Below are positions 305 through 18,979 of a DNA stretch of 64,000 nucleotides, one piece after another; position 1 is the first letter of the stretch, and each line of letters begins with the position of its first letter. The notes under the pieces were generated by a model. That model ran no database searches and had not been told where the DNA came from. It was given only the letters and a program-made list of their open reading frames with translations. Position numbers and translations under genes: made by a program. The stretch is from a virus, in IMG/VR virus record IMGVR_UViG_3300009171_000001, positions 9,760-73,759 of that record; one strand, given 5' to 3'.

Positions 305-462
305 TAAAATCCTATTAATTCCAGCCGCGTAGCATCATAATCATCTGTACTACAATGTTCGGTAACTAAAGCATTAGCTACTTCAATAAATGGAGTTAAA
401 CTTATTGTGGCATCCACCTCAATAATTCCACCCACAGCTTCAGCCGTTGTTCTCACTGCCAT
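304..462 (-). CDS. Truncated N-terminus of a head-completion/head-tail adaptor protein (52 aa)
   Basis: Own translation: MAVRTTAEAVGGIIEVDATISLTPFIEVANALVTEHCSTDDYDATRLELIGF*. Resembles phage adaptor N-termini; lies downstream of the capsid genes; RBS GAGG upstream. Confidence 0.55.
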   Translation of the reverse strand: MAVRTTAEAVGGIIEVDATISLTPFIEVANALVTEHCSTDDYDATRLELIGF

Positions 463-2337: not shown

Positions 2338-3420
2338 TTAGCTGGTGCTACCGTGGACGATGCCAGTATTACCATCAATGTCTGCCCGAAGTTGCGGGAT
2401 GATAATACACATCACCTTGAAATTCTTCAACAAACCACCATGGGTGTCCCATTCCAAGGTCATTATATCCATCCCAATAACCATACGGATGGTGCTACTA
2501 TCCATTTCAAGCAAAATCACATTGTATGTGCTGTCTGCTGTATCCAGATAATCCAGTGTACGAACATCGGAAATACCGTCGATTTCCTTAATTCTATTCC
2601 GCAATGTCTTGTTGGGATAATTGGTGTTGAAATCATCATCCAAATACTTATCCCACGCTGAGGAATAATACAGGACAAATGGCCCATAATGTTTAGCATC
2701 TTGAGCGGTCTGCTTCATTGCCAGGATTTCAACCAGATGTGTAGCAGCCGTCCAACCAGTAGCAGTGGGGGATGTAATAGTGTCTGTGAGTCTGCTTGTA
2801 AAATTAGCCATCCCATAAATCGTCCCACCACCATAAGCATAGGAAGATAGACGGCCCAACGTGAGCTTTTCAACCATCTCAGCAACCTTACGACCAGCCA
2901 ATTCACCCATCGTAGTATCGAGCGGAGCGCCAGACTGACGCGAGGTTTGAATCTGTCGCAGCGAGAATTGGAAATCCTTATGGATGATTGGAAGGGGCAA
3001 GAAAGCCGATTCAAAGACCGGCCTATCATCCGCACCCAACCGCAAACCATCCATACTAATGGTGGCATCGTTGATGTCACTCATCTTTTGATATTCCAAT
3101 ACGGTTGTACCCATACCATTAGGCACACCATAAGTCAATCCAGACCCACGCAAATCAGCTACAACCCGCAGACGATTTCTGGCTGCCCGAAGAACCTGGG
3201 TGTCCAAATGTAGCCATGCTTCTTTTGTCAATGTGGCCTGTGTATTGGTGCGGATTGCTTCCAATTTACCGTTTCGATAAACGGTAACATAGGATTGTCC
3301 ATTCTCCGCAATATACGGACGCAGTACACCTGGGTCCATATTACATGCCATCAATTTAGATGCCATGTCTGGATTGCTGGACATGCCATTGAGGATAAAA
3401 TCTATTTGAGCATTTTGCAT
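2338..3420 (-). CDS. Major capsid protein (HK97 fold, encapsulin/linocin-like)
   Basis: 360 aa; LPLPIIHKDF.FSLRQ and YGMAN motifs typical of encapsulin-related phage capsids; strong RBS AAAGGAG; follows the protease and decoration genes. Confidence 0.85.
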   Translation of the reverse strand: MQNAQIDFILNGMSSNPDMASKLMACNMDPGVLRPYIAENGQSYVTVYRNGKLEAIRTNTQATLTKEAWLHLDTQVLRAARNRLRVVADLRGSGLTYGVPNGMGTTVLEYQKMSDINDATISMDGLRLGADDRPVFESAFLPLPIIHKDFQFSLRQIQTSRQSGAPLDTTMGELAGRKVAEMVEKLTLGRLSSYAYGGGTIYGMANFTSRLTDTITSPTATGWTAATHLVEILAMKQTAQDAKHYGPFVLYYSSAWDKYLDDDFNTNYPNKTLRNRIKEIDGISDVRTLDYLDTADSTYNVILLEMDSSTIRMVIGMDIMTLEWDTHGGLLKNFKVMCIIIPQLRADIDGNTGIVHGSTS

Positions 3421-3494
3421 TCTAAAGCTCCTTTCAATTAGTTTTTATTATTTTTTGTTATTTTTTCTGTTGATATCCTTTTGTACAATCTGAT

Positions 3495-3938
3495 TTATGC
3501 AATCTGGATGGCCTTGAGTGTGTCTTCTTCCAATGCATCAAATTCTGCTTCAGAGGCATCAATGTGACCAACTATATTGTCCAATTCAGTTGAAGTGGAC
3601 AAATTGGACACAAGAATAACATGTCCTGTACCATCACTGGCCACCTCTTGCCCAGGGCTACCAGTCTCTCCCGCAAGCATCAACAGGTTAAAAACTGAAC
3701 CTGGTGACATCACGGCAATGGAAACGATGTCATCTTCAGAATAATCTGTATCAACCCCATTACCCTGCAAAGCATCTTCCACAGCTACCATACGCCCGTG
3801 TCGGCCACCTTCATTGGAATGAGCTTGTACTTCGCCATCTGTAGTCATTTCCAAAATCATTCCAGGCTTAATGGTACCAGCAGCCACCGCCTCTTCATGT
3901 CGCCAATCACCTTTGTTATGTATTCTACGATATGCCAT
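3495..3938 (-). CDS. Capsid decoration/cement protein
   Basis: 147 aa between protease/scaffold and MCP; EAVAAGTIKPG...VAVEDALQG pattern. Confidence 0.65.
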   Translation of the reverse strand: MAYRRIHNKGDWRHEEAVAAGTIKPGMILEMTTDGEVQAHSNEGGRHGRMVAVEDALQGNGVDTDYSEDDIVSIAVMSPGSVFNLLMLAGETGSPGQEVASDGTGHVILVSNLSTSTELDNIVGHIDASEAEFDALEEDTLKAIQIA

Positions 3939-4011
3939 TCTGCTATCCTTTCAACAAGTATATTTACTGATTTTTATTTACTTTTTCTACTCAGATGAAT
4001 AAATGAAAGAA

Positions 4012-5841
4012 TTAACTTGCTTTCTTGTCAAAATTCATCGTGGGCAAAGCCAATGGTTCAACCGGCTTATCATCTGTCCCCGCACCATTCTGACCGAGGA
4101 AAATGGGAATCGTTCTGGGTGCTATATTTTCCTCAGTAGCCAGGTTTGCAATACCCCGCAAATCTTCAACACTTTTCGTTGCCAAATACTCTTTGGTAAA
4201 TATGTTGCGTTTGTTCGCTGTGATGGCTTCAATGAGATTCTTACGAACCTCTGCCGCCGTCCTTTTCGCCTCAAGCATCCCTTCCCTCAATGTAAGGGGA
4301 GCATTGGCAATATACTCATCTTCAGTCATTGCCTTCGGAGCGGCTGCCGGTTGAGCATTAGCTACGGGCAGCGGGGCAGCCGGATTTGGTTTGTCTTCCG
4401 GCTTGTTGACATCGGGGGACTTGGTCAACTCGGCCACATCTGCGTGCATATTCGTTAGCACCACTTCATCGAGAGCCATCAACACTGACCGATGCTCCTC
4501 AGTCCACGATGTCCTTTCGTTTTCTATGAGTTCATTTACAATTTTCTCTTTGTCCATCTTCTTACCTTTCAAAATAGGATTTTCTTTGTTTGTTGACAAT
4601 GTTATTTCTTTATATGTAACCTGACGCTCAACACTTACCGACAAACCTTCCAACCGCACCTGACCTTTATCTATCTTGTAATTTTGTCGGTACAATTTAC
4701 CATCCTTTTCATAGATGAAATAAGTATCAAACACATCAGTTATCCACGCATTATCCTCTTTAGCTATTAAAGCCCCCCGCAACAAGGTTTGTACAGAATC
4801 ATAACTTATCTCATTCATTATGATAGTTGAAACATTAGTTACACCCTTGTACTTAGCCACCCAAGTTTGGGCTTTGCCAAAATCCCACTTATCCCTCTTA
4901 AACAAATAGGCTTGCACAATGGTATTACCCTCCCCCTTCACATTTCCTATCACAACTTTGATGCCTTTGAGCTTATTAAGCCAAATCGTTTTGAAACTAC
5001 CCTCAACAAAAGGACCTGGTTCTTTTTGTTGCATACGGATGTATTCTTCCGTAACATCCACATCATTCTCTATAATAATCAAATCATCCCCAGATTGATT
5101 CATCCTCAATAATCCTGCCCCATCTGCTATCGAGCAAGCACCCTTCAAATCTGGCAACACAGCCAAATGGTCTGGTTGTATATTACGGGCTGTCCCGATG
5201 TAACTCTCCCCATTCCATTCGCCTGGTGTCCGCTCCAAATCCATAAACAAGCCGGTTGAGACTTCCATCACCTCATTATTCTCTATCGCCTCAGCCACCC
5301 TATTATCCACTGTTCTTATACGGGATGGGTCCAACCATGCTTCTGCCCCCAACTTTTTACTTTCATCATTGAAAGTAGTTTTCATCAACACCCCAATTTT
5401 CCGTGCAGTCAATTCTACAGGGTCACAAGCCGACACACCTATCCCATTCCGTTGTGGATGATAAACCACTACAGGTTTGTGATTCCATACAGCTGTCATT
5501 TTAGCCAATTCAGCAGCTGGATAGAATATGGGCCCATCACTACCATTATGAACCCCTTCCGTTATCATTTGTACCGGCCCCACCAACCAATCCCTATCCT
5601 CCATCGAATCATGCCGCACAACAGGTTTCAAATTAGTGACAATGTATTGAAACATTTTATTCGCTCCTTGTTGCAGATTCCCTACATAACCCGCTGCATG
5701 AGCAGCACGACCTTGAGCATTAGCTTTTTTAGTAGCTCTACTACGGGCGGCATCATCTCCACAAGTATAATAATACTTTTTGCCGTGCCCACCCCACTGC
5801 TGGAAGCAACCCTTTGCATCTTTACCCGAATGAGTTGGCAT
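4012..5841 (-). CDS. DUF2213-type prohead protease/scaffold
   Basis: WNHKPVVVYHP, EVSTG, NIQPDHLAVLP...GACS..DGAG motifs; Ala/Pro-rich scaffold-like C-terminus. Possible internal start (MFQYIV) with its own RBS near 5656. Confidence 0.8.
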   Translation of the reverse strand: MPTHSGKDAKGCFQQWGGHGKKYYYTCGDDAARSRATKKANAQGRAAHAAGYVGNLQQGANKMFQYIVTNLKPVVRHDSMEDRDWLVGPVQMITEGVHNGSDGPIFYPAAELAKMTAVWNHKPVVVYHPQRNGIGVSACDPVELTARKIGVLMKTTFNDESKKLGAEAWLDPSRIRTVDNRVAEAIENNEVMEVSTGLFMDLERTPGEWNGESYIGTARNIQPDHLAVLPDLKGACSIADGAGLLRMNQSGDDLIIIENDVDVTEEYIRMQQKEPGPFVEGSFKTIWLNKLKGIKVVIGNVKGEGNTIVQAYLFKRDKWDFGKAQTWVAKYKGVTNVSTIIMNEISYDSVQTLLRGALIAKEDNAWITDVFDTYFIYEKDGKLYRQNYKIDKGQVRLEGLSVSVERQVTYKEITLSTNKENPILKGKKMDKEKIVNELIENERTSWTEEHRSVLMALDEVVLTNMHADVAELTKSPDVNKPEDKPNPAAPLPVANAQPAAAPKAMTEDEYIANAPLTLREGMLEAKRTAAEVRKNLIEAITANKRNIFTKEYLATKSVEDLRGIANLATEENIAPRTIPIFLGQNGAGTDDKPVEPLALPTMNFDKKAS

Positions 5842-12381: not shown

Positions 12382-13167
12382 CTATTCATTACCTGCACCC
12401 CCCTCATTATCTATTTTATCGGGTAATAGGGCCACGGGATTAGGGGATGGTATATTATCTATAACCGTACTATCGATGGCCCGCCGTCTAATAGTTTCTA
12501 ATATCTTCTCGCGTACATCCATCGGTAACTCGTCTATAACTATCCTTCCTTTTATAGTAGTATTTTTATCTATCTCTATTTTCTCCCCGTACCCTCTATC
12601 CTTACACTTTGTTTTTAGCCCGTATAGAATCGCCGTTGTATCCATCGCTTTTACTAATTTATAAAATTGACTCTCTATAAAATCCTTCTTTATATCCTCT
12701 ATTTCTTTTACTAACTTACCGAAATCGCCATCGTTATTTAACCACTGGTAATACAACCCTCTACTTATCCCGACTTTCCGGCAAGCCTTCGCTATAGAGA
12801 AATTATTAGATATTAGGGCGTAGATAAAAAGATATTGATTAGCTGCTTTCCCCTTATTAGCCAAAAGGCTTTCTATTTTCCCCGTATCCGTCCCCTCTTT
12901 ATCATACTGATTTATCTTTTCCCAAACGGATTTTAGGTTATCGGGTAGCCGATTATAAACATAGTCTTTTATGCTTAGGTTGTTATTAGTTTTTTTCCGT
13001 ATAGACTTAGCTGTCTTTATAGCCATTCTAATCTTTTTATACTTTTTTCTCCATGTTATCAAGGTTGGCTTAGTCACGCCTATAGTTTTGGCTACGGTAT
13101 TTAAGGTGGCACCATCCTTCACCAAATCGTATATCGTAAAAACTAAACTATCGTTCCATTTTGTCAT
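12382..13167 (-). CDS. Terminase small subunit-like protein with two HTH motifs
   Basis: HTHs VAKTIGVTKPTLITW and ACRKVGISRGLYYQW; AILYGLKTKCKDRGY motif; upstream of terL. Confidence 0.75.
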   Translation of the reverse strand: MTKWNDSLVFTIYDLVKDGATLNTVAKTIGVTKPTLITWRKKYKKIRMAIKTAKSIRKKTNNNLSIKDYVYNRLPDNLKSVWEKINQYDKEGTDTGKIESLLANKGKAANQYLFIYALISNNFSIAKACRKVGISRGLYYQWLNNDGDFGKLVKEIEDIKKDFIESQFYKLVKAMDTTAILYGLKTKCKDRGYGEKIEIDKNTTIKGRIVIDELPMDVREKILETIRRRAIDSTVIDNIPSPNPVALLPDKIDNEGGAGNE

Positions 13168-13429: not shown

Positions 13430-13770
13430 TAGGCTATAAAGTATAGCCTAAGCATATTTGACAAGTTTATATCGGAGGCCGGGAAGGGCGGATTTTACTA
13501 CGGGGTAAGATTACGCGGTCGGCCTAAAATACCGGAAGGAATCTAAGTCGATACGCTACGGCTTACCTGGAAGTCCCGCTCCCGAAGAGGGCAGGCGGGT
13601 ATCTAAGGAAACTACGGGTGGACGGCTTCCAGCTCTATTTCAACCACGCTTCGGCCTCAGGCCCGATAGGGGTTAAAATAGTATCAAGGCTGGCGGCGGG
13701 GCAGGGCGATATATCGTAAGGATTTACGGGCAAGCGGGCGATACCAAGCAGATTTATCTGCCGGCAAAAG
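13430..13770 (+). ncRNA. Putative structured leader RNA of the early transcript
   Basis: ORF-free GC-rich island; hairpin 13430-13450; boxA-like GCATATTTGACAA at 13452; pairings GAGGCCG(13475)/CGGCCTC(13652), CTGGAAGTC(13567)/GGCTTCCAG(13624), CCCGC/GCGGG. Confidence 0.55.
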
Positions 13771-13850
13771 TCCACAATATAATATAAGATATATATACTT
13801 TATATATATACTTATATTACCAATTCTCCCTTAGAAAGAAAATTAGATTA

Positions 13851-13913
13851 GGGCCTAATCGGATTACCCGACAAAATATATCGGGTATAGCGGTTCAACT
13901 CCGCTATAGGCTC
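13851..13913 (+). ncRNA. tRNA-mimic element T1 (acceptor stem + T-arm, no D/anticodon arms)
   Basis: GGGCCTA/TAGGCTC stem; T-arm TAGCGG-TTCAACT-CCGCTA; internal TACCCGA/TCGGGTA hairpin. Confidence 0.7.
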
Positions 13914-13926
13914 TTGTGTTTGTAAG

Positions 13927-13969
13927 TAAAATATCTAATAATTATCTTATTTAAGGAGAACAAAAAATG
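13927..13969 (+). promoter_or_regulatory. Conserved early-gene leader/RBS (TAAAATATCTAATAATTATCTTATTTAAGGAGAACAAAAATG)
   Basis: Near-identical copies start at about 13927, 14310, 14684, 15150, 16122, 16474 and 18688; RBS-only copies near 18990 and 19917. Confidence 0.85.
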
Positions 13970-14233
13970 AAAACCGAAACGAAAACCGAAACGAAAATTA
14001 CGAACGCCGAAAAAAGGGTAATCTTATCCGCTATTCGGGAAAAGATAAAAATCGCCTCCGATATTCTTTCCGTCGCCACCGTCGAGGAAAATTACGAGGA
14101 TGAGGTAGTTATCGATGCGATAACGGACGCGGCGTTAATCATCGAAATCGCGTATCTTAATTCGCTCGATGACGGCGGAGCGAGGATTCTTTACCCGCCG
14201 AAAGACGGGGAGGCCTACCGGAACGGGGAATAA
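13967..14233 (+). CDS. Early hypothetical protein
   Basis: 88 aa; conserved leader/RBS. Confidence 0.8.
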   Translation: MKTETKTETKITNAEKRVILSAIREKIKIASDILSVATVEENYEDEVVIDAITDAALIIEIAYLNSLDDGGARILYPPKDGEAYRNGE

Positions 14234-14234
14234 A

Positions 14235-14310
14235 AGTTGAAATACCCGATAATCTATATCGGGTATATATAGGTGAAAAGCGATAACCTATACTGATGAG
14301 ACTAATCGCT
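14235..14310 (+). ncRNA. Hammerhead ribozyme, type II (HH1)
   Basis: AGTT-GAAA-stem III (TACCCGAT/ATCGGGTA)-TA-stem I (TATAGGT/ACCTATA)-CTGATGA-GACT; loop AGCGAT pairs with 3' ATCGCT; predicted cut after 14267. Confidence 0.92.
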
Positions 14311-14347
14311 AAAATATCTATTTAATATCTATTTAAGGAGAACAAAA

Positions 14348-14623
14348 ATGAGAACGTCGAGAAAAGCTCCGATTATTCAAGTCCGAACTTTGGCCGAAAG
14401 GATAATCGAAATTAGCGAAAATCCACTAAGTGAAGCAGATTTTGAAGGGAAGACGGGACGCTCTCGGAGCGAGGTATTACTATTTTTAGCGAAGACTATC
14501 CTAATGGAATTAGAATCCACCGCTAAGTCTCGCCTCTTATATATACCCGCTAAGTCAAGCATTGCCGCTAAGTCAAGCATTGCCGCTAAGTCAAGCATTG
14601 CCGCTAAGTCAAGCATCCGCTAA
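14348..14623 (+). CDS. Early hypothetical protein with C-terminal AAKSSI repeats
   Basis: 91 aa; conserved leader/RBS. Confidence 0.75.
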   Translation: MRTSRKAPIIQVRTLAERIIEISENPLSEADFEGKTGRSRSEVLLFLAKTILMELESTAKSRLLYIPAKSSIAAKSSIAAKSSIAAKSSIR

Positions 14624-14626
14624 GTC
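14547..14626 (+). repeat. 18-bp tandem repeat CCGCTAAGTCAAGCATTG (~4 copies)
   Basis: Directly visible in the sequence. Confidence 0.9.
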
Positions 14627-14676
14627 TCCATCTGAAATAGAGGTCAGATTTATAGGTTCGACTCCTATGGAGACTT
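14622..14676 (+). ncRNA. tRNA-mimic element T2
   Basis: AAGTCTCC/GGAGACTT stem; T-arm ATAGG-TTCGACT-CCTAT; internal ATCTGA/TCAGAT hairpin. Confidence 0.72.
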
Positions 14677-14722
14677 TTGTAAGTAAAATATCTAATAATT
14701 ATCTTATTTAAGGAGAACAAAA

Positions 14723-15058
14723 ATGAAGACCAAAATAAAAGACACATTAAGACCATTCACTAAACAGGATGATCGCGTTTTTTGCAGCACTAAAAAACCT
14801 TCGGATGGCTCAACACCACTTATCGGCAGGGTCAAGATAACAAATTGGCCTGATTCCGATAAAACTGATGGGTGGGATGACTTTGTGACTGTAATAGTGG
14901 ATGGCCTCGGAGTATGTTTGTGTGGGACAGATGGTGTATTAACAAGAGCCATCCCAGATTTTGAAGATGCTAAGGCCATTGCATATTACATTCTCTCCAC
15001 TCCCACAGATTACATCCAACTGGTAAATAGCGGCAAGTGGGAATCCATCAATCTGTAG
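14723..15058 (+). CDS. Early hypothetical protein
   Basis: 111 aa; conserved leader/RBS. Confidence 0.8.
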   Translation: MKTKIKDTLRPFTKQDDRVFCSTKKPSDGSTPLIGRVKITNWPDSDKTDGWDDFVTVIVDGLGVCLCGTDGVLTRAIPDFEDAKAIAYYILSTPTDYIQLVNSGKWESINL

Positions 15059-15074
15059 TAAAAACCGCCCGCTA

Positions 15075-15150
15075 AGTCGAAATACCCGATATAGATTATC
15101 GGGTATATATAGGTCAAAGCGATGAACCTATACTGATGAGACTAATCGCT
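15075..15150 (+). ncRNA. Hammerhead ribozyme, type II (HH2)
   Basis: AGTC-GAAA-stem III-TA-stem I-CTGATGA(15133-15139)-GACT plus pseudoknot; predicted cut after 15107. Confidence 0.94.
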
Positions 15151-15187
15151 AAAATATCTAATAATTATCTTATTAAGGAGAACAAAA

Positions 15188-16048
15188 ATGAAGACAGTAA
15201 AAACAAACCGATTAAGTGAACGTGCTATGCTGGTACACCTGCGCATTTTGAGATATGCCGGTCATACCAAAGACAATGAAGTAGTTTTGGACGTTTGTTC
15301 GCAAAAACAAGCCACTCAGGACAGCGGTGGATGGTACACCTATTTGATTCCAAAAAAGGAATTGAGTGGTGTTAATCACGCTGCTTCCCGATGTCGCGAA
15401 ATCCACAATCACTATACTTTTCCATGGCTGGATGGTGGGATGCGGATATTACCATCTTTGTATTTCTTCAAATACCGCGAAGCCATCGCTACGGCCATCG
15501 CTGAGTATGATGAGGCAGTTGAGATATTTCTAACCAGATACCCAGACATTGTAACTAAGTCCAAGGAACGTCTGGGTCAACTGAACAGAATAATGCCATC
15601 GGTGAAGGAGATTCAAAGCAAGTTTGCAGTTTCACACAGCATATTTCCACTGCCTGAGACGGAGGACTTCCGTGTCAAATTGGCGGATGAGGAAAAGGAG
15701 TCTGTGAAAGCAACAATCACAGACAGTCTCAATGCCACAATGACGGCTGCGGTCAGTGCCGTTTGGGGCAAATTAGCCAAGTCTGTGGAAAAGATTGCTG
15801 CAGCCACAAAGGACAAAGACAAACAATTTCGCAATGTCCTTTTCACAAACTTGGTTCAACTGTGTGAGGATTTGCCTCAACTGAATTTTACTAATGACGT
15901 CAAATTAGAAGAGGTGAGACAGCACATCTTAACTACGCTGGCTAAATTCAATCCAGATGATGTTCGTGAAGACAGTCAAAAACGCAAGGCAGCTGCCAAA
16001 GCAGCCAAAGACGTTTTGAACAAGATGAAAGATTATGCAACTACATAG
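15188..16048 (+). CDS. Conserved phage early protein (DUF3150-like)
   Basis: LSERAMLVHLRI...HYTFPW.DGG.RILP pattern, of the kind often found beside AAA/VWA pairs. Confidence 0.55.
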   Translation: MKTVKTNRLSERAMLVHLRILRYAGHTKDNEVVLDVCSQKQATQDSGGWYTYLIPKKELSGVNHAASRCREIHNHYTFPWLDGGMRILPSLYFFKYREAIATAIAEYDEAVEIFLTRYPDIVTKSKERLGQLNRIMPSVKEIQSKFAVSHSIFPLPETEDFRVKLADEEKESVKATITDSLNATMTAAVSAVWGKLAKSVEKIAAATKDKDKQFRNVLFTNLVQLCEDLPQLNFTNDVKLEEVRQHILTTLAKFNPDDVREDSQKRKAAAKAAKDVLNKMKDYATT

Positions 16049-16058
16049 CGTGTTCTCC

Positions 16059-16108
16059 GACCACCGCAGGTTTCAGGCCGTTAATGGGTTCAAACCCCAT
16101 CGGTGGTC
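16059..16108 (+). ncRNA. tRNA-mimic element T3
   Basis: GACCACCG/CGGTGGTC stem; T-arm ATGGG-TTCAAAC-CCCAT. Confidence 0.72.
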
Positions 16109-16160
16109 TTGTGTTTGTATGTAAAATATCTAATAATTATCTTATTTAAGGAGAACAAAA

Positions 16161-16400
16161 ATGAACCTGCAAGAAATTAAAAGCCGAGTTGAGGCACTAA
16201 AAGCCTCTCTGAAAATTGATGCTGTCGATGCCATTTATGAAGACAGCTTTGCGCTCGGCTATTTTGGCAATCAAATCCAGCATGAAATTGCCGGCCACGA
16301 AGGTTGCTTTGCCTATGCTCGTACATCGAGCAAAGCTCGCATCGAGGCGATTGTAAACATGCTTGTGAATGAAGGAGAATGTTTGGCCAAAAAAGACTAA
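16161..16400 (+). CDS. Early hypothetical protein
   Basis: 79 aa; conserved leader/RBS. Confidence 0.8.
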   Translation: MNLQEIKSRVEALKASLKIDAVDAIYEDSFALGYFGNQIQHEIAGHEGCFAYARTSSKARIEAIVNMLVNEGECLAKKD

Positions 16401-16474
16401 GTCGAAATACCCGATATAGAATATCGGGTATCTACGGATAAAAGCGATAATCCGTATCGAAAAGACTAATCGCT
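16400..16474 (+). ncRNA. Hammerhead ribozyme type II with variant core UCGAAAA (HH3)
   Basis: AGTC-GAAA-stem III-TC-stem I (TACGGAT/ATCCGTA)-TCGAAAA(16457-16463)-GACT plus AGCGAT/ATCGCT pseudoknot; predicted cut after 16432. Confidence 0.8.
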
Positions 16475-16511
16475 AAAATATCTAATAAATATCTTAAAAA
16501 GGAGAACAAAA

Positions 16512-17498
16512 ATGAATGCTAAACAAATGAAAGTTGTACTGACTAAGTGCATCAAAAACGGTTTGCCCGTGCTTATCAAAGGAGCGCCAGGTGTTGGCAA
16601 GTCTGATGTCGTGACGCAAGTAGCTGCTGAATTGAAGATGGATTTAATCATCAGCCATCCAGTGGTAAGTGACCCGACAGACTTCAAAGGTCTGCCAGGG
16701 ATTGTGGATGGCAAAGCTGAATTTTTGCCGTTTGGTGATTTGCGCTCGCTAATTCAAGCCAAAAAGCCAACAATTGCTTTCTTGGATGATTTGGGCCAAG
16801 CACCAGCCGCAGTACAAGCTGCAGCAATGCAACTAATCCTTGCTCGCCGAGTGAATGGACATAAAGTGAGTGACAAGGTGGTATTTATTGCCGCCACTAA
16901 TCGACGGCAAGACAGGGCTGGTGTAACAGGCATCCTTGAACCTGTTAAGTCCAGATTTGCCACCATCATTGAGTTGACACCAGATTTAGACAGCTGGTCT
17001 GAGTGGGCGTTGGCTAATGATGTTCCACCGCAGATTTTGGGCTTTTTGAATTTTCGCCCAAATTTGCTTTGCACCAATGAAGCAACAGCCGATATTGTGA
17101 ACCATCCGTGCCCACGTACTTGGGCTTTTGCAAGCAAATTAATCCAAATTGATTTGACGGATATACAAAGTCTGGCTGGAGCTTTGGGCGAAGGTTGTGC
17201 GGTTGAGTTTGTGGGATTTATGCGAGTGTTCGACAGTTTGCCGAACATTCAAACAATCCTATTAGACCCAGAAAATACCACCATCCCAAATGAACCTGCC
17301 GCTATGTATGCTGTGGTGTCCGCCTTGGTTAATCGAGTGTCCGACAAGACATTCAAAGCCATAGTTACATATGCTGACCGTTTGCCAGCTGATTTTGGCA
17401 CGCTGCTAATCCGTGATTGTGTTAAGTCCAATCCAAACATTCAAAACACTGCTGCTTTTGGTCAATGGGCCATCAAGCACGCTAATTTGCTAATATGA
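16512..17498 (+). CDS. MoxR-like AAA+ ATPase
   Basis: GAPGVGKS Walker A, FLDDLGQA Walker B, AATNR, SRF, PRTW. Confidence 0.9.
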   Translation: MNAKQMKVVLTKCIKNGLPVLIKGAPGVGKSDVVTQVAAELKMDLIISHPVVSDPTDFKGLPGIVDGKAEFLPFGDLRSLIQAKKPTIAFLDDLGQAPAAVQAAAMQLILARRVNGHKVSDKVVFIAATNRRQDRAGVTGILEPVKSRFATIIELTPDLDSWSEWALANDVPPQILGFLNFRPNLLCTNEATADIVNHPCPRTWAFASKLIQIDLTDIQSLAGALGEGCAVEFVGFMRVFDSLPNIQTILLDPENTTIPNEPAAMYAVVSALVNRVSDKTFKAIVTYADRLPADFGTLLIRDCVKSNPNIQNTAAFGQWAIKHANLLI

Positions 17499-17506
17499 GG
17501 TGTACA

Positions 17507-18613
17507 ATGAATGCTATGGAAATTATGACTAAGGCCAGAACTCACTTGTTGCTTGACCATCCATTTTTTGGATGCTTGGCCATGCGATTAAGTCTGGTTG
17601 AGGACAATCAGTTTGAAACAGCGGGGACAGATGGCAAGGAATTGAGATTCAATTCACAATTCATTCAATCATTACGATTGAATCAAGTGGTTGGATTGTT
17701 TGCTCACGAGGTTATGCACTTGGCTTTGGGGCACAACTGGCGGCAAGGCACACGTGAACATGAACGGTGGAACAACGCTGGCGATTACGCCATCAATTCC
17801 AATCTTGTCCGCACTGGGATTCACCTGCCGGATGGTGCTTTGATTGCTTATCAGTTTGACAAAATGAGTGCAGAAGAAATTTACACTTATCTTCCGTCCA
17901 ATCCAAACCAAAATCAAAGCTCCGGCTCAAGCCAAACGTCTGATCCAGGTGGTTGCGGGGCAGTATTACCCACACCCAATGATTCTCAACTGGATGAGAC
18001 TAAGGCAGAGTGGAAGACAGCAGTGGCTCAAGCCATACAATTTGCTGGCATCGGTAATTTGCCTGCGGATTTGGCTCGCCAATTACAATCGGTGATTGAC
18101 CCATCGTTGCCATGGTATGTATTGCTGCGTGATTTTGTAGAACGCTCAGCGCGCAACGATTTCACTTGGCAAAGGCCAAATGCTCGCTACATCAATCAAG
18201 GCATTGTTCTGCCAGGATTGATTAGTGAAGAGTTGCCTGAAGTGATTGTGGCTGTTGATACCAGTGGCTCAATTAGTCAAGCCCAATTGGATTCTTTTGC
18301 GGCTGAGGCCAGTGCGGTGCTTAGTGCTTACAAAACAACAATCCGTGTGATATATTGCGACAACGAAGTACAAGGCGAGCAAATCTATCAAACAGATGAT
18401 TTGCCCATCCACTTATCACCGAAAGGTGGTGGCGGGACAAAGTTTGACCCTGTGTTCCGCTATGTAAACGAGAATGGATATACACCATCCTGCGTGATAT
18501 ATCTGACGGATTTGTTGGGGCCCACACCCCAATGTGAGCCAGAATGCCCTGTACTTTGGGTAAGTACAAAGCCAGGCAAAATGCCCTTTGGTACAGTGAT
18601 TCAACTGAATTGA
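17507..18613 (+). CDS. Metallopeptidase (HEXXH)-VWA domain protein (DUF2201-like)
   Basis: AHEVMH, DYAIN, VAVDTSGS MIDAS, GGGGT.F.PVF, YLTD. Confidence 0.9.
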   Translation: MNAMEIMTKARTHLLLDHPFFGCLAMRLSLVEDNQFETAGTDGKELRFNSQFIQSLRLNQVVGLFAHEVMHLALGHNWRQGTREHERWNNAGDYAINSNLVRTGIHLPDGALIAYQFDKMSAEEIYTYLPSNPNQNQSSGSSQTSDPGGCGAVLPTPNDSQLDETKAEWKTAVAQAIQFAGIGNLPADLARQLQSVIDPSLPWYVLLRDFVERSARNDFTWQRPNARYINQGIVLPGLISEELPEVIVAVDTSGSISQAQLDSFAAEASAVLSAYKTTIRVIYCDNEVQGEQIYQTDDLPIHLSPKGGGGTKFDPVFRYVNENGYTPSCVIYLTDLLGPTPQCEPECPVLWVSTKPGKMPFGTVIQLN

Positions 18614-18614
18614 A

Positions 18615-18688
18615 TGTCGAAATACCCGATAATCTATATCGGGTATATATAGGCTAAGGCGATAACCTATACTGATGAGACAATCGCT
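18615..18688 (+). ncRNA. Hammerhead ribozyme, type II (HH4)
   Basis: TGTC-GAAA-stem III-TA-stem I (TATAGG/CCTATA)-CTGATGA(18672-18678)-GACA with compensatory stem II; predicted cut after 18647. Confidence 0.93.
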
Positions 18689-18949: not shown

Positions 18950-18979
18950 CGCTAAGGCTCGCTAAGGCTCGCTAAGGCT
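18950..18979 (+). repeat. 10-bp tandem repeat CGCTAAGGCT x3
   Basis: Directly visible in the intergenic spacer. Confidence 0.85.

Follow-up and report, generated by a model that had tools for sequence, protein, structure and literature searches.

What do three small RNA elements that resemble the top half of a tRNA do between the genes of a phage operon? The question is raised by a window of 64,000 nucleotides (the whole stretch of DNA analysed here, bases 9760–73759 of the complete, 73,759-bp IMG/VR phage genome IMGVR_UViG_3300009171_000001, which has direct terminal repeats). At the start of an operon of small early genes, the original prediction had noted three elements, T1, T2 and T3, each with an acceptor-like stem stacked on a T arm, a single small hairpin in place of the other two arms and no CCA. 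Our analysis supports the description of T1–T3 as tRNA top-half mimics with a fixed predicted geometry and differing stems. On balance, we think it probable that they are intercistronic RNA-processing signals, carried in portable modules that extend from the stop codon of one gene to the start codon of the next. Inspection of the sequence placed all three on the plus strand where they had been claimed:

T1, 13850–13914, plus strand: acceptor-like stem 13850–13857/13907–13914, 8 bp with one G–U pair; 7-nt spacer
T1 arms: hairpin 13865–13887; T arm 13888–13906, 6 bp; T loop 13894–13900, UUCAACU
T2, 14622–14676, plus strand: acceptor-like stem 14622–14629/14669–14676, 8 bp; hairpin 14630–14649
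T2 T arm: 14652–14668, 5 bp; T loop 14657–14663, UUCGACU
T3, 16059–16108, plus strand: acceptor-like stem 16059–16066/16101–16108, 8 bp; 17-nt middle
T3 T arm: 16084–16100; T loop 16089–16095, UUCAAAC

In each element, the 3′ strand of the acceptor-like stem directly abuts a T stem of 5–6 bp that ends in a 7-nt loop. The claimed stacking of an acceptor-like stem on a 5–6-bp stem with a T loop was found in all three, with acceptors of 8 bp, and all three match the descriptor given below. The closing pairs of the T arms, G52–C62 and G53–C61, make up the GGTTCRANYCC motif of tRNA T arms. The D arm and the anticodon arm are absent. The description of a single small hairpin in their place is accurate for T1 and T2 and holds only weakly for T3, whose middle forms at most a weak 4-bp hairpin, leaving one clear hairpin in the whole element. 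CCA is absent 3′ of all three elements, as had been stated; the trailers that follow read UUGU.... ARAGORN called no tRNA genes (0) in the window, in line with the expectation that these would not be called as full tRNAs. For T1 and T2, the proposed structure is also the minimum-energy fold (z = −4.3 and −2.4, respectively).

The three elements are not a chance occurrence. A strict descriptor (7-bp acceptor, T stem of 5 or 6 bp, TTCRANY loop, and acceptor 3′ strand abutting the T stem) was run on both strands of the whole 73.8-kb genome and matched T1, T2 and T3 only; over 200 dinucleotide shuffles, the mean number of matches was 0.085 and the maximum 2. The GGTTCRANYCC motif occurs at three sites in the window, exactly those of T1–T3, against 0.51 expected. 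MAFFT could not align the three elements structurally, and our covariance model was built from T2 and its copy in a homologous contig (L133, described below) only, the other elements being aligned by Infernal. Run with filters off over the full 64-kb window on both strands, the T2-based model scored T1 at 29.6 bits (E = 4e-6) and T3 at 19.7 bits (E = 3e-3), with the next match at 10.5 bits. This recovery bears out the claim that the stem sequences differ while the geometry is fixed. The alignment of these matches, which is fitted to the model and includes the T2 reverse strand as one row, has 99.2% of its cells paired and 15 of 19 pairs changing on both sides, against 31–44% of cells paired in control structures slid by 1–3 columns. 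The covariance-model search that the original prediction had suggested succeeded in recovering T1 and T3 and failed to extend the family: a second model (R2), made from that alignment, gave no match above 20 bits when run against 0.8 Mb of unrelated contigs, both viral and metagenomic. The T family as modelled is therefore narrow.

A metagenome contig of 3650 nt, L133, contains the same operon start on its minus strand and keeps all three elements:

T1 copy, L133 3122–3184, minus strand: T loop UUCAACU unchanged; compensatory change in the hairpin, C:G to U:A
T2 copy, L133 2463–2514, minus strand: compensatory change in the T stem, A:U to G:C; loop UUCGACU to UUCAACU (G57 to A, purine kept)
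T3 copy, L133 1198–1247, minus strand: near-identical; T loop UUCAAAC unchanged

The original prediction had named a lack of T-loop conservation in homologous loci among its grounds for refutation, and L133 keeps all three T loops, with compensatory changes in the stems. The T2 module (14616–14730) is 94% identical in L133, though the ORFs (open reading frames) on both of its sides differ, and the ORFs after T1 are unrelated between the two phages. Across 13967–16400, small early ORFs have changed places or been exchanged for others relative to L133, and the junction modules are 84–98% identical. Because the T2 module is kept where the flanking ORFs differ, the junction modules behave as portable units conserved apart from their cargo genes. 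Their boundaries look like recombination joints.

These modules share a common order. Every junction in the stretch consists of a stop codon, often within a CGCUAAGUC box, followed by a structured element, an AU-rich leader ending in AAGGAGAACAAAAAUG and the ATG of the next gene. T1–T3 lie directly between ORFs, are co-oriented with them and are each followed by the same leader, copies of which are at 13929, 14686 and 16124, with variants at 14310, 15150, 16474 and 18690. Along the operon, the structured elements alternate between T elements and hammerhead (HH) elements, in the order T1, HH-a, T2, HH-b, T3 and HH-c, with HH-d following after two larger genes. Between each T element and its leader is a trailer common to T1, T2 and T3 only:

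13915–13966, plus strand: T1 trailer (UUGUGUUUGUAAGU) and shared Shine–Dalgarno leader, to the ATG of ORF 13967–14233
14677–14722, plus strand: T2 trailer and shared leader, to the ATG of ORF 14723–15058
16109–16160, plus strand: T3 trailer and shared leader, to the ATG of ORF 16161–16400
14547–14626, plus strand: tandem array of the CGCTAAGTC junction box, 18 nt × 4.6, running into the T2 acceptor

The junction box CGCTAAGKC occurs 11 times, always on the plus strand, against 0.17 expected (sites at 14521–14626, 15070, 18950–18979 and 21935). It often supplies the stop codon, and it also forms the 5′ strand of hammerhead stem II and the start of T2. The 18-nt array is inside the 3′ end of ORF 14348–14623 and is translated as AAKSSI repeats; the box is found again as a 10-nt × 3 array before ORF 19003. 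A search of viral contigs with the leader pattern returned chance matches and one near-identical fragment, which starts after the T region.

The junctions that alternate with T1–T3 are occupied by the following elements:

HH-a, 14236–14310, plus strand: type II hammerhead; loop I/3′-tail pseudoknot GCGAU/AUCGC; descriptor match; fold z = −4.0
HH-b, 15076–15150, plus strand: type II hammerhead; descriptor match
HH-c, 16400–16474, plus strand: hammerhead-like; core UCGAAAA in place of CUGAUGA; full hammerhead fold
HH-d, 18616–18688, plus strand: type II hammerhead; descriptor match

HH-a, HH-b and HH-d, the only hammerhead-descriptor matches in this phage, follow the type II consensus (4-bp stem II, GAAA, stem III, AUA cleavage triplet, stem I and CUGAUGA) and carry the loop I/3′-tail pseudoknot, which is needed for fast hammerhead cleavage (Perreault et al. 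2011, PMC3088659). The core variant of HH-c is kept in L133 (~320–395, minus strand), directly upstream of the ATPase gene. None of the Rfam hammerhead models reached threshold on the hammerheads of the window (14236–18688) or on those of a more distant relative, L006 (4483–5956); because these models miss even the textbook-like hammerheads of L006, database scans under-count such arrays.

Comparison of the two kinds of element revealed that T1 and T2 are related to the hammerheads. The sequence TACCCGA...TCGGGTA is present in five copies, in T1 and in the four hammerheads, which agrees with the claim that the inner hairpin of T1 equals hammerhead stem III. The shared ancestry proposed on that basis is supported and can be extended, as the homology of T1 continues past the hairpin into the CUAA(G)UCG-A-A box and T2 also contains hammerhead blocks. 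By BLAST, T1 13855–13889 aligned to a hammerhead 5′ half with 83% identity over 36 nt, and the alignment includes the CUAA(G)UCG box and the GAAA position, which reads GGAU in T1. T2 starts in the CCGCUAAGUC box that it has in common with the hammerheads; its acceptor, AGUCUCC/GGAGACU, is hammerhead stem II (AGUC/GACU) with 3 bp added, and its T stem, UAUAGG/CCUAU, is the hammerhead stem I sequence. The hammerhead loop I contains the pseudoknot partner GCGAU, and in T2 a T loop takes its place. T2 lacks the CUGAUGA strand and GAAA, and both catalytic core strands (CUGANGA and GAAA) are missing from T1–T3 as a group. T1, T2 and a type II hammerhead are all three-way junctions built in the order open stem 5′ strand, hairpin, hairpin, open stem 3′ strand. 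Sequence comparison found no hammerhead similarity in T3, which has only its trailer and leader in common with T1 and T2. From these sequences, which come from two genomes, T1 and T2 look to us like hybrids of a hammerhead scaffold with a tRNA-type T arm, or like products of a conversion that may have run in either direction.

More distant relatives, found via the ATPase and the DUF3150 protein encoded by gene D (15188–16048), keep the operon layout and differ in what they hold at the junctions. L006, whose ATPase is 69% identical, has three canonical type II hammerheads, each followed by the conserved leader of L006. One of the three occupies the slot downstream of D, which contains T3 in this phage and in L133. 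L153 also has a hammerhead, located upstream of D. In L151 (D 43% identical), D is directly followed by an 89-nt tRNA-like cloverleaf with an 8-bp acceptor, a variable arm, a D-like arm with GG in its loop, a GGGUUCGACUCC T arm and a 4-nt loop at the anticodon position. This cloverleaf was rejected by ARAGORN, matched the tRNA-Sec model over its full length at 24.9 bits (E = 0.11) and scored only 14.3 bits with model R2. The five other L151 junctions have perfect 12–13-bp hairpins with UGCAAUU or UGUAAUU caps, each followed by the L151 leader:

L151 345–375, 676–706, 1361–1393, 3459–3489 and 4669–4699: minihelix hairpins, one per gene junction

In length and loop, these hairpins fit an acceptor/T-stem minihelix, and the heptaloop fits the U54...A58 T-loop pattern. 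In L146 (5663–5830), a genuine tRNA-Met (64.9 bits) lies in the operon just upstream of the ATPase gene and is followed by two extra stand-alone T-arm hairpins (GGUUCGAUUCC). L009, L010, L149 and L150 have other hairpins at their junctions and L007 has nothing. Equivalent slots in these phages therefore contain top-half mimics in some cases and, in others, self-cleaving ribozymes, real or broken tRNAs, minihelices or plain hairpins. In L149, one T-like candidate fold (3385–3440) was rejected on account of its z of −0.4 and short stems. Separately, L010 has long tandem repeats (21-nt and 15-nt units; 3520–3725 and 4110–4160) beside conserved hairpins, instead of ribozymes.

The structure, non-chance occurrence, placement, conservation and portability of the T elements, together with the slot equivalence and the scaffold kinship of T1 and T2, are the observations from which we infer a processing mechanism. 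The early plus-strand operon would be transcribed as one long RNA. In the hammerhead modules, this RNA would cut itself between stem III and stem I. In the T modules, the coaxial stack of acceptor and T stem with its T loop, a combination that is the minimal determinant for both RNase Z and bacterial RNase P, would recruit host RNase P to make a cut on the 5′ side of the acceptor; in addition or instead, a cut in the U-rich trailer would be made by RNase Z or some other nuclease. Neighbouring cistrons would be separated, yielding monocistronic messages that start at or shortly before the same leader, with possible effects on message stability and translation; RNAs of 50–65 nt would be excised, and these may have a fate of their own. 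A search of the genome's proteins found no integrase, CCA-adding enzyme or RNase Z-fold protein encoded by the phage, and host enzymes would therefore be used. RNase P is known to cleave acceptor-stem/T-stem/T-loop hairpin models as well as several phage RNAs and mRNAs (PMC11143913), elements bearing GGTTCRANYCC direct RNase P and RNase Z cuts at the ends of plant mitochondrial mRNAs (PMC1920247), and prophage-like polycistronic RNAs are cleaved by tandem hammerheads that flank their genes (PMC3088659). A role of the modules as recombination linkers is compatible with processing and is no rival to it.

Several observations weigh against a processing role. The T trailers resemble U-rich terminator tails and weak −35 boxes. 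The minimum-energy fold of T3 contains the 8-bp acceptor and not the T arm; at −21.5 kcal/mol it lies 2.9 kcal/mol below the tRNA-like fold (−18.6 kcal/mol). The acceptor/T-stem stack measures 13 bp in T2 and T3 and 14 bp in T1, where 12 bp is canonical; the nucleotide at −1 is U in two of the three elements; and there is no 3′ RCCA, the sequence that pairs with P15 in type A enzymes. Bacteria that do not encode CCA in their tRNA genes do not need RCCA, and stacks of 13–14 bp are found in tRNA-Sec and tRNA-His. In L133, the T1 acceptor has one uncompensated change, U to C, which creates a C–A mismatch. The exact T family is present in two genomes only, and the covariation consequently rests on few independent events; the high pairing score given above belongs to a fitted alignment. 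Separately from these points, the T2 acceptor starts inside the UAA stop codon (14621–14623) of ORF 14348–14623, and RNase P cutting at the 5′ edge of this acceptor would strip the upstream message of a complete stop codon; the overlap is absent in L133.

The first of these observations is the starting point for the alternative that survives best, which we nevertheless consider unlikely. It holds that each T element is a terminator joined to a promoter: transcription would stop at the 8-bp stem with its U-rich tail and restart at a weak sigma-70 promoter formed by trailer and leader, the T loop being incidental or secondary. The tails after the T closing stems do contain 5–6 U in 8 nt, the hexamer in the trailers, TTGTAA or TTGTAT in this phage and TTGTCA in the three copies of L133, always lies 17 nt ahead of TATCTT, and the hammerhead modules lack a hexamer of the TTGTAA type. 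Against this, a promoter scan did not call the trailer sites (8 of 12 matches), promoter-like sites are not enriched in the region, and the leader, including TATCT, is equally conserved after the hammerheads, where no −35 box exists. With strands 35–48 nt apart, the T closing stems would make a poor intrinsic terminator, which is typically a compact, GC-rich hairpin with a U tract directly behind it, and the scan left these sites uncalled. Termination and restart also leave unexplained the invariant GGTTCRANYCC arm and its compensatory changes, as well as the hammerheads, the tRNA-like cloverleaf and the tRNA in the slots of the relatives.

It is less likely still that T1–T3 are functionless relics, decayed hammerheads and/or tRNA genes that mark old recombination joints between cassettes. 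T1 and T2 do resemble hammerheads without a core, gene cassettes have been shuffled at these joints between the window and L133, and the core of HH-c is non-consensus. A decaying hammerhead, however, has no reason to arrive at a consensus T loop with a G53–C61 closing pair on three separate occasions. Stem pairing has been kept through two compensatory changes, T2 is 94% conserved while its neighbours have been replaced, and T3 has no hammerhead similarity yet shows the same geometry. Another candidate, a phage attachment site (attP) containing a partial tRNA gene, was rejected because both stem strands are present, the three elements are different and there is no integrase. Arrays of VIPR guide RNAs were also rejected, as the spacers between the elements are protein-coding ORFs and GGY/NN repeats are absent.

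The weakest alternative, which goes back to a speculation of the original prediction and has the mini-tRNAs serving after excision to draw off tRNA-directed toxins of host defence, or tRNA-binding factors, as decoys or sponges, is very improbable: tRNA top halves carry an acceptor/T-arm surface that some enzymes recognise and the T elements are located among small early genes swapped between relatives, as is typical of host-takeover genes, but the three acceptor sequences are unrelated, no identity set is visible, and the relatives' hammerheads in the same slots argue for a cis-processing role. The specific suggestion of a decoy for anticodon nucleases found no support and is impossible, because T1–T3 have no anticodon arm, the arm that those enzymes cut, and can be neither their substrates nor their decoys; among toxins, at most acceptor-directed ones would be candidates.

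The genomic setting of the T elements is that of an early operon. Minus-strand genes lie to the left of ~13,350, including that for the small terminase subunit (12382–13167); they are followed by a 600-nt non-coding divergence region and then by the plus-strand operon from 13967, whose first genes are small and mostly without assigned function:

13967–14233, plus strand: ORF, first gene of the early operon, downstream of T1
14348–14623, plus strand: small early ORF, stop codon 14621–14623
14723–15058, plus strand: small early ORF downstream of T2
15188–16048, plus strand: gene D, DUF3150 protein
16161–16400, plus strand: small early ORF downstream of T3
16512–17498, plus strand: MoxR-like AAA ATPase
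17495–18613, plus strand: DUF2201 metallopeptidase/VWA protein

By the ATPase, the nearest cultured phages are N4-like, at ~35% identity. The region had no DNA match in the phage collection, and a scan of genome contigs found no prophage relatives of the DUF3150 protein, of which a protein search found 30 further homologues. A search of sequencing runs identified two DNA runs that contain the stretch, both freshwater-sediment metagenomes and one of them probably from the source sample, and no RNA runs. Before T1, a 300-nt GC-rich non-coding stretch (13455–13765) is 88% conserved in L133 (3260–3560, minus strand); it had no Rfam match, and its stability is not above that of shuffles (z = −0.55). 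In the same place, L006 (~3905–4000) and L007 (~4625–4715) have a different conserved 5′ RNA-like segment in common.

Among known systems, the t-elements of plant mitochondria (Forner et al. 2007, PMC1920247) are similar to T1–T3 in being non-decoding tRNA-like folds with a GGTTCRANYCC arm and an acceptor-like stem at mRNA boundaries, and a role in directing cleavage by RNase P and RNase Z has been put forward, and in part demonstrated, for them (PMC1920247). They differ in being organellar and mostly near-complete, odd cloverleaves, whereas T1–T3 are phage-borne, comprise the top half only, have an 8-bp acceptor, come with a portable translation leader attached and occur in alternation with ribozymes. 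In sequence and predicted structure, T1–T3 are what the definition of a t-element describes, and the cleavage that belongs to this definition, by RNase P and/or RNase Z and with RNA termini at the element's own ends, is predicted. The tandem type II hammerheads of prophage operons (Perreault et al. 2011, PMC3088659) are likewise compact, folded cleavage elements that mark one gene boundary after another along a single polycistronic RNA. The HH elements described here are of that kind, including the loop I/3′-tail pseudoknot; T1–T3 have a T loop in place of the CUGANGA and GAAA core, and they would depend on a host enzyme to be cut. What is specific to this locus is that T1 and T2 are akin to the hammerhead scaffold.

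Embedded tRNA mimics also serve as RNase P/Z cut signals in mascRNA/MEN-beta (RF01684) and in the tRNA-like/pre-miRNA units of murine gammaherpesvirus 68, which, unlike T1–T3, are eukaryotic or from an animal virus and have cloverleaf-like folds. In Rfam, T1–T3 had no match at gathering score, and the tRNA clan gave no match across 13700–16600 with E values as high as 10 admitted. T3 gave a weak full-length match to the mascRNA model (19.6 bits, E = 1.2; gathering threshold 42.5). The freshwater-2 model (RF02980), which describes hairpins followed by a similar AAGGAGAA...AUG leader, gave sub-threshold matches over T1, T2 and HH-c with their leaders (26.5, 25.2 and 20.4 bits; gathering score 49.9), and the T modules are not members of that family. 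T1–T3 are thus outside the tRNA, mascRNA, freshwater-2 and hammerhead classes. The minimal model substrates of RNase P (McClain, Guerrier-Takada and Altman 1987, as cited in PMC11143913) resemble T1–T3 in the coaxial acceptor/T stack, which is predicted for T1–T3, and in the T loop, the D and anticodon arms being dispensable; they are synthetic, with 12 bp and an RCCA end, in contrast to the natural T1–T3, which have 13–14 bp, an extra side hairpin and no CCA. In the literature searched, we came across no account of phage operons in which tRNA top-half mimics serve as junction elements or change places with hammerheads.

A broader proposal, which we offer tentatively as possible rather than probable, is that T1 and T2 descend from type II hammerheads by loss of the catalytic core, lengthening of stem II into an acceptor and replacement of loop I by a T loop, swapping self-cleavage for cleavage by the tRNA-processing enzymes of the host. 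With T3 and the hammerheads, they would form plug-and-play cassettes of stop codon, cut signal, leader and ATG that allow early genes to be shuffled while processing and translation stay separate, an arrangement that may be widespread in phages. If this is true, a ribozyme scaffold would have been re-tooled into a substrate for a host enzyme, and such modules would be natural, compact insulator parts like those that synthetic biology makes from ribozymes and tRNAs. Since 2011, it has been an open question what purpose is served by the many hammerheads that cluster between the genes of phages and prophages (PMC3088659). If mimics, degenerate tRNA, real tRNA and hammerheads fill the same slots, their common denominator is the cutting of RNA, which points to operon punctuation as the job of the ribozymes; viruses that infect bacteria would then have a counterpart of mitochondrial tRNA punctuation and of the plant t-elements.

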